Part shown: positions 13,481-14,572 of the stretch, piece after piece
How positions within the stretch are numbered: the stretch's first letter is position 1
Layout of the letters: every line of letters begins with the position of its first letter
IMG/VR virus record: IMGVR_UViG_3300023116_008583
Span: 26,192-90,191 of that record
Direction: 5' to 3' (one strand)
DNA: 64,000 bases
Source: a virus
The notes under the pieces: model-generated
What the model saw: the letters and a program-made list of their open reading frames with translations, nothing else
The model's database searches: none
What the model was told of the DNA's origin: nothing
Program-made: the position numbers and the translations under genes

Positions 13481-13664
13481 GCCAGGTGAACTAGTTCGAA
13501 TAACAAAAACCGCTGTACAAGATAGTAGGTTTTTGAACAAGGTTGGAGTGTTAATACGTGACGACGGAGTGGATGATTGTGGAATTCCAGAAGTATTCAT
13601 TCTTGTTGAAAGTGATATAATATGCGTATATCCTGATGGATATGAGATTGTGGAGAAAAATTGA
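13470..13664 (+). CDS. small KOW/SH3-like protein
   Basis: IKPGELVRI...VGVL. Confidence 0.5.
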   Translation: MMIKPGELVRITKTAVQDSRFLNKVGVLIRDDGVDDCGIPEVFILVESDIICVYPDGYEIVEKN

Positions 13665-14572
13665 TAACCTTTCCCGTCAATAAAATCGTTTTAGAGGGTT
13701 GCGACCTCTCAGGAAAGACAACGCTTTACAACGAGATACACAAAAGGTCAGGGTTTAGGTGGAACATGGATGATAGATCCGGTGTTTCAATGTGTGTTTA
13801 CGCTAACCTTTATAATCGGGATGATTTTTATCACCGAAATAATCTCCATTTGGAGATGTCGAACTTAAACAACCAGTTTGTTCTTCTGTACCCAGACATT
13901 CATACCATTCATGAAAGATTTTTAAGCAGAGGTGATGAAGCACAAGATATCTCTTCTTTGAGCGACCTTCACGTTCTTTTTGGAAAAGAGCTTGAAAGAT
14001 ATTGCATGCTACCTAATTTTCATATTTTCCAGACCGGAAAACCAGAAGAACAAGCACAAGAAGTTGTAAGAAGATGTCGGAGGCTTGAAAATATCTCCAT
14101 AGACACAATCGGAAATTATGTCAGAGAGTTTGCCAAATTTCAGCCTAACAGAGAATCCACTACAGTTCAATTTCACTTTTATGATGACGGGACCTTTGGC
14201 ACAGTTAACGAAGCAATTCTTTCAACTCCTGGTGAAGAAGAATACTACCAAAAGATCAGGCAGAACTTCCTTCAAAAGATTGAAAATGAGCTTAAGGGAA
14301 ACAATCACTACGGTAGAAAAGAGACGCCTGAATCTAGGCGGTTTGTGTTTGCAGGCGAAGAATGCATATCGTTCATTCAGGCAGTATTTAGAGATGATCT
14401 ACTTGATGTGCACGCTGTGTTTAGATCTTCCGATACCGAGCACAAGACAGGAACAGACGTTCAGCTGATACACATGCTTGGAAGAGATGTATTTAGAATT
14501 CTTAATCTAGACCCGGCCCAACACAAGGCTAGATTTCGATTTAATGTTAATAGTGCACACGTGCTAATCTAG
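13661..14572 (+). CDS. dNMP kinase fused to a truncated thymidylate-synthase-fold (dCMP-type) domain
   Basis: N-terminal LEGCDLSGKTT and DR; C-terminal SRR...C...Q...RSSD-x7-D...SAH. Confidence 0.8.
   Translation: MITFPVNKIVLEGCDLSGKTTLYNEIHKRSGFRWNMDDRSGVSMCVYANLYNRDDFYHRNNLHLEMSNLNNQFVLLYPDIHTIHERFLSRGDEAQDISSLSDLHVLFGKELERYCMLPNFHIFQTGKPEEQAQEVVRRCRRLENISIDTIGNYVREFAKFQPNRESTTVQFHFYDDGTFGTVNEAILSTPGEEEYYQKIRQNFLQKIENELKGNNHYGRKETPESRRFVFAGEECISFIQAVFRDDLLDVHAVFRSSDTEHKTGTDVQLIHMLGRDVFRILNLDPAQHKARFRFNVNSAHVLI

Follow-up and report, generated by a model that had tools for sequence, protein, structure and literature searches.

Nearly all known hypermodifications of phage pyrimidines begin with an enzyme of the thymidylate synthase (TS) family, and such modifications decide the cutting of phage DNA by restriction enzymes and CRISPR. 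A flavin-dependent class of hydroxylases acting on deoxycytidine monophosphate (dCMP) was published in 2025–26 (PMC13326640). In particular, the TS homologues RB69 gp48 and DLP3 gp80 were shown to use O2 and a flavin that they bind loosely to turn dCMP into 5-hydroxy-dCMP (Lee et al., NAR 2026; PMC13326640). In that work, Asp at the position of N177 in ThyA denotes dCMP as the substrate, and Asn at the position of ThyA D169, seen in hydroxylases only, was proposed as diagnostic of 5-hydroxy-dCMP synthases (PMC13326640). Table 1 of the same paper lists a ‘nucleotide kinase’ resembling YorR or thymidylate kinase (TMK) beside the TS homologue in DLP3 (gp78), RB69 (gp45) and RL38J1 (gp214), and RB69 employs a gp1-type deoxynucleoside monophosphate (dNMP) kinase for 5-hydroxy-dCMP (PMC13326640). 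The structures of AfhB from phage HY126 are credited there to He et al., and what we say of AfhB is drawn from the PDB titles and from that paper (PMC13326640). Here we describe a gene in which a kinase of this type is fused to a much reduced TS-like domain. It lies in a 64,000-nucleotide (nt) stretch of viral DNA, positions 26,192 to 90,191 of the IMG/VR record IMGVR_UViG_3300023116_008583, hereafter the window.

The fusion gene (13661–14572, + strand) encodes 303 amino acids (aa), starts with TTG and ends with a stop codon at 14570–14572. A GGAG sequence at 13652–13655 is located five bases 5′ of the start, which overlaps by 4 nt the stop of a conserved open reading frame (ORF) of 64 aa that trails the polymerase gene. 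Residues 1–147 (13661–14101) are assigned to a YorR/TMK-like P-loop nucleotide kinase by VIA, by profile comparison with the PDB and by PHROG, and residues 148–303 (14102–14569; ~155 aa) to a minimal TS fold by AlphaFold2 (AF2), VIA and Foldseek. It is probable that the protein combines a C5-modifying dCMP enzyme with a nucleotide kinase of some kind. IMG/VR gave 80 related loci; conservation was scored over 78 homologues and synteny over 81 loci. A word-indexed search recovered 47 full-length relatives (290–317 aa, E = 1e-202 to 1e-30), none of which has a Pfam domain, and a profile search with the C-terminal domain through 1.84 billion protein representatives returned 452 clusters at E <= 1e-3, of which 176 reach E <= 1e-10. 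Most of the clusters found by profile are ~300 aa long and carry the domain at ~146–301.

For structural comparison, the C-terminal domain was folded alone from an alignment of residues 145–303 with 52 diverse homologues drawn from the loci, and the AF2 model reached a predicted local distance difference test (pLDDT) score of 96. In a wide VIA search through 48,161 representative chains, independent of Foldseek, seven matches had Z >= 8 and all of them belong to the TS family (Z 8.7–11.3, with 136–144 of 159 aa aligned), the following non-TS match having a Z of 5.1. The closest is the AfhB-type monooxygenase 9iqc (Z 11.3; 142 of 159 aa, root mean square deviation (rmsd) 3.1 Å), followed by Brucella ThyA (Z 11.1), MilA (Z 10.4; 144 aa aligned at 21% identity), three further TS entries (Z 9.8–10.1) and T4 dCMP hydroxymethylase (gp42; Z 8.7). 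Foldseek likewise ranked AfhB first in the PDB (9iqu, 7e-8; 9iqc, 1e-6), then T4 gp42 (2e-6), and in BFVD it retrieved viral homologues of TS and dCMP hydroxymethylase only. At the sequence level, the top PDB matches of the profile made from the alignment were T4 gp42 (0.0028) and AfhB (0.013), and hhalign gave E-values of 2.5e-7 for T4 gp42, 3.4e-6 for RB69 gp48 and 1.7e-4 for E. coli ThyA. Against a joint profile of AfhB, dCMP hydroxymethylase and ThyA the hhalign probability was 97% (E = 8.7e-11). By contrast with these profile comparisons, the standard TS model PF00303 does not match the fusion protein even at E <= 10 and gives only E = 0.07–0.12 with stand-alone relatives of the domain; Pfam and PHROGs searches of the whole protein produced weak P-loop matches only and nothing on the C-terminal domain. 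Neighbours in the ESM Atlas are small viral clusters, with PF00303 in about 15% of their members. Thus, as modelled, the C-terminal domain is a minimal TS fold. The initial annotation of this DNA, made from the letters alone, had read such a fold here and proposed structure or profile comparison with ThyA, T4 gp42 and TS-fold hydroxylases; that comparison, in which the significant structural neighbours are TS-family proteins only, bears the reading out.

The hhalign alignments place the catalytic residues of the TS family in the domain one by one. S225-R226-R227 (14333–14341) corresponds to the phosphate-binding arginine pair R126/R127 of ThyA, a pair that TS enzymes, as obligate homodimers, donate across the dimer interface, with S225 perhaps equivalent to S125, an assignment made against ThyA, T4 gp42 and RB69 gp48. 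C235, in E233-E234-C235-I-S (14357–14371), corresponds to the nucleophile C146, and R255-S256-S257-D258 (14423–14434) to R166-S167-C168-D169. D266 (14456–14458) takes the place of N177, which selects between cytosine and uracil, and H300, in S298-A299-H300 (14552–14560), that of H207, the preceding Ala aligning with T206 and the Ser, less certainly, with D205; after this motif only V-L-I and the stop follow, up to 14572. The order and spacing of C146-R166-D169-N177-H207 of ThyA are kept, and the seven residues that separate D258 from D266 (14423–14458 for R255-D258…D266) reproduce exactly the R166-D169…N177 spacing of the E. coli enzyme. The homologues have diverged to about 25% identity, and the residues that are invariant or nearly so among all 78 of them include E192, R226, C235, R255, S256, D266 and H300 in the TS half; R226/R227, C235 and R255/S256 are each invariant or present in 77. 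Moreover, an acidic residue (D/E) occurs within three positions before the Cys in 75 of the 78, which resembles the L143D/E hallmark, although the Arg pair and the Cys are joined by a loop 11–14 residues shorter, so that the exact equivalence of this residue to L143 is uncertain. R244 is common to the domain, AfhB and T4 gp42 and is not found in ThyA. The number of full-length homologues (47) and clusters (452), the invariant residues and the profile E-value of 8.7e-11 against the TS family together indicate that the kinase and TS motifs are real and beyond chance. Re-translation of each codon block confirmed SRR, EECIS, RSSD…D and the terminal SAH at the places where the initial annotation had noticed them, and its proposal of Asp at the N177 position holds in 78 of 78 homologues. 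The invariant Cys, the phosphate-binding arginines and Asp266 strongly argue for TS-type covalent catalysis on a cytosine nucleotide.

What distinguishes the domain from its solved relatives is the extent of its reduction, which exceeds that of any characterised member. According to our own reading of secondary structure and alignments, the elements retained are helix A, strand ii (the long strand), a single long helix, strands iii–v, helix J and strand vi. The hhalign alignments cover only its C-terminal half, and in the MAFFT alignment the long helix falls ambiguously on helix B or helix H. This helix starts with E192-E-E-Y195-Y196 (14234–14248), where E192 is invariant and Y195/Y196 is found in 74 of 78 homologues. 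Only ~14 residues join the helix to S-R-R, whereas ThyA has ~58 there, bearing W80, W83 and Y94. In place of the hydrophobic L172 and F176 there are polar or variable residues, and the chain ends three residues past H300, as do those of most homologues (58 of 78 end 2–3 residues past the His), so that the last ~55 residues of ThyA are absent, including the segment after H207/Y209 that closes over folate in TS. A domain of about 150–170 aa that appears to lack much of the folate-binding scaffold, as had been estimated from the translation, is therefore what is found. E192 and Y195/Y196 are candidates for the acid/base roles of ThyA E58 and Y94, and Y195/Y196 could substitute for the latter.

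AfhB (9iqu/9iqc), RB69 gp48 and DLP3 gp80 have the same TS fold, AfhB being the top structural match, and AfhB-type enzymes share with the mini-TS domain the catalytic Cys, the Arg pair, Arg-Ser, Asp at the N177 position, the Arg of an I-R-D motif and S-A-H near an early C-terminus; like the mini-TS, they are partnered with a YorR/TMK-like kinase and nucleoside diphosphate (NDP)-sugar genes. However, they are 230–240 aa long, recognised by PF00303, and keep the Y94/G95 segment and Asn169, whereas the mini-TS is ~155 aa, invisible to Pfam, appears to have lost that segment and carries D at position 169, where its family has D, N or E; and the kinase, a neighbouring gene in AfhB-type clusters, is fused here. 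T4 gp42 (1b5e, 6a9a), the best sequence match, shares the Cys, Arg-Arg, R-S-x-D, Asp177, the acid before the Cys and the type of nucleotide module, but has 246 aa and uses methylenetetrahydrofolate (CH2-THF), and its W82/Y96 folate and catalytic segment appears deleted in the mini-TS; its kinase, gp1, is a different and unlinked protein. The core sheet and helices of ThyA superpose with the domain, yet ThyA has Asn177 (for uracil), Leu143, His147, Ala in place of R244 and ~110 more residues, among them the folate-binding and C-terminal closing segments. MilA is a TS-fold enzyme with Asp177, and the nucleoside 2-deoxyribosyltransferase (NDT)-family gene in the module described below recalls the NDT-family glycosidase MilB; by contrast, MilA is ~320 aa long and acts on CMP in a Streptomyces antibiotic pathway. 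We know of no kinase or polymerase linkage of MilA.

The AF2 model of the full-length protein has a pLDDT of 94.7 and a predicted template modelling score of 0.90. Residues 7–147 superpose best, by VIA, on YorR of the B. subtilis prophage SPbeta (3kb2; Z 14.3, rmsd 2.7 Å, 138 aa), followed by mycoplasma deoxyadenosine kinase (Z 12.5) and many thymidylate kinases (Z ~11). Consistent with this, the family profile of the N-terminal domain matches YorR in the PDB at E = 3.6e-7, with the D-R motif and the R-x3-R-G-D LID aligned, and PHROG 761, thymidylate kinase, matches the domain at 3.6e-4. No Pfam or NCBI family reaches its curated cut-off on the domain; AAA_28, AAA_18 and dNK match below threshold and on the P-loop only. 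The motifs of the half are well defined: the P-loop G13-C-D-L-S-G-K-T-T21 (13697–13723), in and beside which E12, G13, D15, G18 and K19 are invariant; D38-R39 (13772–13777), the invariant ‘DR’ motif of TMK- and deoxynucleoside kinase-type enzymes, aligned to the D-R-F motif of YorR; and an invariant LID-like segment, R86-x3-R90-G-D92 (13916–13936). Together with R53 and G91, these residues make up the invariant or nearly invariant set of the kinase half among the 78 homologues. YorR (2axp/3kb2) and the kinases DLP3 gp78, RB69 gp45 and RL38J1 gp214 have in common with the domain a P-loop with Asp, the D-R motif and the R-x3-R-G-D LID, and RB69 gp45 is a weak match to the domain profile (7.7e-8, in a database of two sequences). 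Given the structural rank of YorR and the profile match with its D-R and LID motifs, the N-terminal domain is, from sequence and model, a compact TMK/YorR-type nucleotide kinase, so that the dNMP kinase noted in the initial annotation is supported as to its fold. That the D-R-S motif has Asp and not Glu tilts the reading toward a nucleoside monophosphate kinase resembling TMK. The YorR-type kinases of 5-hydroxycytosine clusters are separate proteins of ~170–180 aa, whereas here the kinase has 147 aa and is covalently joined to the TS-like domain; the fusion is thus, at the sequence level, a Rosetta-stone link between YorR-like kinases and the TS homologues of the published clusters.

The two halves also occur in other arrangements. 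An exhaustive profile search recovered a stand-alone mini-TS family of ~165–200 aa, which a word-based search for short stand-alone forms had failed to find, with the motifs E…Y, S-R-[KQR], C-I-S, R-S-S-D, D and G-S-[AL]-H; the E…Y pair is invariant in this family too. In one related locus (L086) a kinase of 155 aa (hidden Markov model of the N-terminal domain, 3.7e-16) and a mini-TS of 215 aa are encoded by adjacent overlapping genes in the order of the fusion (L086:7381–8483). The same locus has, by ThyX and 3 kb upstream of the split pair, a TS homologue of 248 aa (L086:4051–4797), and the two coexisting TS-fold proteins presumably differ in function. In another locus (L087) a mini-TS of 166 aa directly follows ThyX and is not accompanied by a kinase. 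Finally, a sister lineage (L084) has the same synteny, with a DnaE 42% and a superoxide dismutase (SOD)-like protein 61% identical to those of the window, and its genes at the position of the fusion encode a short-chain dehydrogenase/reductase (SDR), a glycosyltransferase-like protein, a separate 179-aa kinase, another SDR and a full-size TS homologue (PF00303, 4e-28), followed by thymidine kinase. From these split, stand-alone and replaced forms, the pairing of kinase and TS-like protein is, as far as the sequences tell, a conserved functional unit, and the mini-TS can work unfused.

The neighbourhood of the gene is equally well conserved. A DnaE-type DNA polymerase III alpha of 1309 aa (9551–13480, + strand) is encoded immediately upstream, and the fusion directly follows DnaE in 81 of 81 viral loci as judged by ORF clustering. 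No cultured phage has a polymerase more than 29% identical to this DnaE, and when the fusion and two stand-alone mini-TS proteins were compared by tblastn with 50,697 records of cultured phages, nothing matched. Downstream, an extended-SDR NDP-sugar 4-epimerase (15024–15950, + strand) has as its best PDB matches the UDP-N-acetylglucosamine 4-epimerases WbgU/WbpP (2e-50), and in 65 of 81 loci an SDR of the same cluster lies no more than 10 kb from the fusion, mostly directly downstream. Between fusion and epimerase lies a gene for a DUF2452 protein of 146 aa (14583–15023, + strand), present in 6 of 81 loci. Overall, the conserved order is MazG/dUTPase_2, dUTPase_2-NT5C, ThyX, NDT-like, SDR, DnaE, fusion, SDR, (GMP reductase), thymidine kinase, DHH, dCMP deaminase and SOD-C-like. 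In the window, all on the + strand, the upstream part of this nucleotide module comprises a ThyX-like gene (815–1798; PF02511, 7e-19), an NDT-like gene beside it (2433–2897; PF05014, 2e-16; conserved in 38 of 81 loci) and a second SDR (3766–4737), and the downstream part thymidine kinase (20608–21180), a DHH phosphoesterase (21170–22045), dCMP deaminase (22589–23080) and a 230-aa protein of the Fe/Mn-SOD-C type (23440–24132; 59 of 81 loci) that matches the SOD C-terminal domain only. The NDT-like product could be, from its family, a dNMP N-glycosidase of the MilB/DNPH1 type that clears a canonical nucleotide. The SOD-C-like gene has a fixed place in the module, unusual for a phage, and it would be speculative to tie it to the chemistry of oxygen or flavins. 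Some 1.2 kb before the window begins, a 337-aa open frame of the parent record encodes a dUTPase_2 (all-alpha NTP pyrophosphatase) domain (24774–25043); the corresponding proteins of related loci (~313 aa) add an NT5C 5′-deoxynucleotidase domain, and the protein is, by its domain, a candidate remover of a canonical dNTP. The module as a whole mirrors the T4 precursor set, which consists of dCTPase, a dCMP-modifying enzyme, dNMP kinase, dCMP deaminase, thymidylate synthase and thymidine kinase. Canonical TS (PF00303 above cut-off) was found in none of the 23 larger related records. Further downstream, a gene at 29020–29403 (+ strand) encodes a pterin-4a-carbinolamine dehydratase (PCD)-like protein (PF01329, 7e-12), with H-H-A, in our own reading of the sequence, instead of the canonical H-H-P. 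A PCD-like gene is present in 23 of the 23 larger records, 10–25 kb from the fusion, and a pterin-dependent aromatic amino-acid hydroxylase in 1 of 23.

Taken together, these observations lead us to propose a bifunctional enzyme of a jumbo-phage DNA-precursor pathway. The C-terminal domain would bind dCMP, holding the phosphate by R226/R227 and R255/S256 and reading the cytosine by D266. Cys235 would attack C6, as in all TS-family enzymes, C5 would turn nucleophilic and a substituent would be added there. In the version that we tentatively favour, O2 would hydroxylate C5 with the help of a reduced, loosely attached cofactor of the flavin type, and the product may be 5-hydroxy-dCMP, as with AfhB and RB69 gp48, an assignment by analogy that we hold with reserve. 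The TMK/YorR-type kinase would then phosphorylate the new nucleotide, which is probably a poor substrate for host kinases, the neighbouring DnaE polymerase would incorporate it, and the adjacent NDP-sugar epimerase suggests later glycosylation on the DNA. Channelling of the product to its own kinase, also put forward in the initial annotation, is suggested by the fusion. Hydroxylation is favoured by the best structural neighbour, by the apparent loss of the folate scaffold, by the AfhB-like early C-terminus with S-A-H and by the YorR-type kinase and sugar-nucleotide genes. Several observations weigh against it. Sequence-level scores are slightly better for T4 dCMP hydroxymethylase than for AfhB, and ThyA and MilA are structurally tied with AfhB at the Z-scores given above. 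Position 258 is Asp in the window protein and not the Asn proposed as the hydroxylase marker; of the 78 homologues, 41 have D there, 28 have N and 9 have E, and a tree of 70 orthologues requires the residue to have switched at least 11 times. The segment with W80 and Y94, which AfhB keeps, appears absent here, so that the mechanism is not simply copied from AfhB. The full-size TS homologue that stands at the position of the fusion in the sister lineage carries Asp at both 177 and 169 and a further Asp three residues ahead of the Cys, the signature of the T4 hydroxymethylase type. No flavin reductase was found in the 90-kb parent record, estimated to be ~29% complete; no glycosyltransferase was detected by Pfam or PHROGs among all + strand ORFs of at least 150 aa and the gene neighbours, nor by GT1/GT2 models in the same partial record. 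Finally, E. coli Fpg and endonuclease III (Nth) excise 5-hydroxycytosine, which is awkward for unglycosylated 5-hydroxycytosine DNA given that the phage encodes its own Fpg/Nei and HhH-GPD glycosylases. In 6 of the 23 related records, among them the majority of those that are more complete, there are GT1 genes, but >100 kb from the fusion.

The leading alternative is a folate-dependent dCMP hydroxymethylase like T4 gp42, in which dCMP, activated by Cys235, attacks CH2-THF through C5, water adds to the exocyclic methylene to give 5-hydroxymethyl-dCMP and the fused kinase plays the role of gp1. This is a serious alternative, if a somewhat doubtful one. Besides the best profile and hhalign scores, the retained Asp at the D169 position, the folate-type state, points to it in the window protein and in 41 homologues, and the full signature of N177D, conserved D169 and an acid near L143 has its counterparts in D266, D258 and E233/E234, the last with the uncertainty about L143 already noted. 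The module, with its dCTPase-like protein, dCMP deaminase and thymidine kinase, parallels that of T4, the L084 sister lineage has a full-size T4-type homologue in the same place, and the phage’s own glycosylases also speak for it, since E. coli Fpg and Nth cut out bare 5-hydroxycytosine. However, the W80/W83/Y94 segment appears to be missing and the whole C-terminal part is absent, polar or variable residues stand at the places of L172 and F176, 28 of the 78 orthologues have Asn, a marker found only in hydroxylases (PMC13326640), and T4 gp42 is the weakest of the TS-family structural matches; furthermore, YorR-type kinases have so far been described beside hydroxylases and not beside gp42-type enzymes. 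We place 5-hydroxylation slightly ahead of hydroxymethylation. The initial annotation had suggested a C5-modifying dCMP enzyme, perhaps a folate-independent one such as a hydroxylase; this fits the closest solved relative, AfhB, whereas D258 lacks the D169N marker and hydroxymethylation is nearly as likely. A cofactor or chemistry new to the TS fold is distinctly unlikely: a reduced pterin or tetrahydrofolate might activate O2 by way of a 4a-hydroperoxide, PCD recycling the product, or another C5 group might be added, which would yield a new base. In its favour, the domain is far more reduced than AfhB or T4 gp42 and invisible to PF00303, a stand-alone family of ~165–200 aa has the same motifs, D, N and E are all tolerated at position 258, and the PCD-like gene is ubiquitous in the related records with a pterin-dependent hydroxylase in only one; the TS fold, moreover, natively stacks a reduced pterin on a pyrimidine. 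Yet the co-occurrence of PCD amounts to conservation across the lineage, with no specific link to a gene 10–25 kb away, the PCD-like protein has H-H-A and not H-H-P, and we know of no metal-free pterin oxygenase. More specifically, that the mini-TS constitutes a new self-sufficient C5-modifying class with neither folate pocket nor AfhB flavin site, possibly using O2 on a reduced pterin or tetrahydrofolate recycled by the orphan PCD, seems to us improbable.

It is also possible to doubt that a modified base is made for DNA at all. The domain could be a nucleotide-binding or regulatory part of a salvage kinase, or it could use attack on C6 for deamination or exchange on dCMP; we regard this as unlikely. 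No DNA glycosyltransferase and no dCTP-excluding enzyme of proven specificity is known from this lineage, ThyX, thymidine kinase, dCMP deaminase and GMP reductase make an ordinary salvage and auxiliary set, and the domain has no recognisable cofactor-binding segments. On the other hand, the Cys, the Arg pair, Arg-Ser, Asp and His remain invariant over homologues with as little as ~25% identity and are kept in the stand-alone family, which argues for TS-type catalysis; a zinc dCMP deaminase is already encoded, and L084 combines its full-size TS homologue with a glycosyltransferase-like neighbour at the same position. Even less probable, to the point of being hard to credit, is an action on CMP like that of MilA, which together with an NDT/MilB-like glycosidase would release a free modified base or small molecule and not a DNA precursor. 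The Z-score of MilA is among the highest, and the NDT-family gene belongs to the conserved module (38 of 81 loci); however, the fusion is bound to the polymerase gene in every locus and carries a kinase, which would be pointless in a base-release pathway, and the choice between ribose and deoxyribose is unreadable from sequence. Thus, both of these readings are made less likely by catalytic conservation and polymerase linkage. With a kinase joined to a TS-like enzyme whose active site reads cytosine, it is probable that this widespread group of phages supplies its DNA with a chemically altered C.

The variability of position 258 has a consequence of its own. Its state shows no association with ThyX, PCD, SDR or other neighbours, and D169N was ruled out as a classifier for the mini-TS family by the D/N/E flips among syntenic orthologues and the absence of any link to context. 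The proposed D169N predictor therefore does not carry over to distant TS homologues. Besides this D/N/E lability, the analysis brings out the split, stand-alone and replaced architectures, the assignment of the epimerase and the orphan PCD found throughout the lineage. The mini-TS family, invisible to the standard TS model, comprises hundreds of clusters at 50% identity (452 at E <= 1e-3), and the fusion is a core gene tied to the replicative polymerase of a large uncultured jumbo-phage lineage that has no cultured relative. If modified dCMP is made, a whole group of environmental phages would have non-canonical cytosine, with effects on sequencing bias, evasion of host defences and the discovery of enzymes. 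The minimal catalytic core of the TS fold would then be defined by the 155-aa domain, and the fusion would be direct genetic evidence for the supposed role of YorR-like kinases in the published 5-hydroxycytosine clusters. Were the pterin or new-class reading true, abundant aquatic jumbo phages would carry a cytosine derivative produced by chemistry not yet described.

The parent record, G000, has 90,191 bases and a jumbo-phage-like content that includes the DnaE-type polymerase, ClpB, GroEL, DnaJ, phosphomannomutase, Fpg/Nei, UvdE and several lysis enzymes. Dihydrofolate reductase, GTP cyclohydrolase I and aromatic amino-acid hydroxylase were looked for in this ~29%-complete record and none was found. 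Between 35422 and 50588 of the window there is a chaperone and repair set unusual for phages, with genes for ClpB (35422–38019), a FEN-like 5′-3′ exonuclease (38443–39282), the Fpg/Nei glycosylase (39275–40078), GroEL (40525–42123), a eukaryotic-type phosphomannomutase (42089–42871), after which come a pyridoxal phosphate enzyme and a Nudix gene, DnaJ (45625–46659), the HhH-GPD glycosylase (46625–47077) and UvdE (48340–49350). IMG/VR labels G000 a ‘provirus’, yet the genes of the window are all of phage or auxiliary type and lie mostly on one strand, and relatives reach 284 kb; the record looks like a fragment of a lytic jumbo phage.

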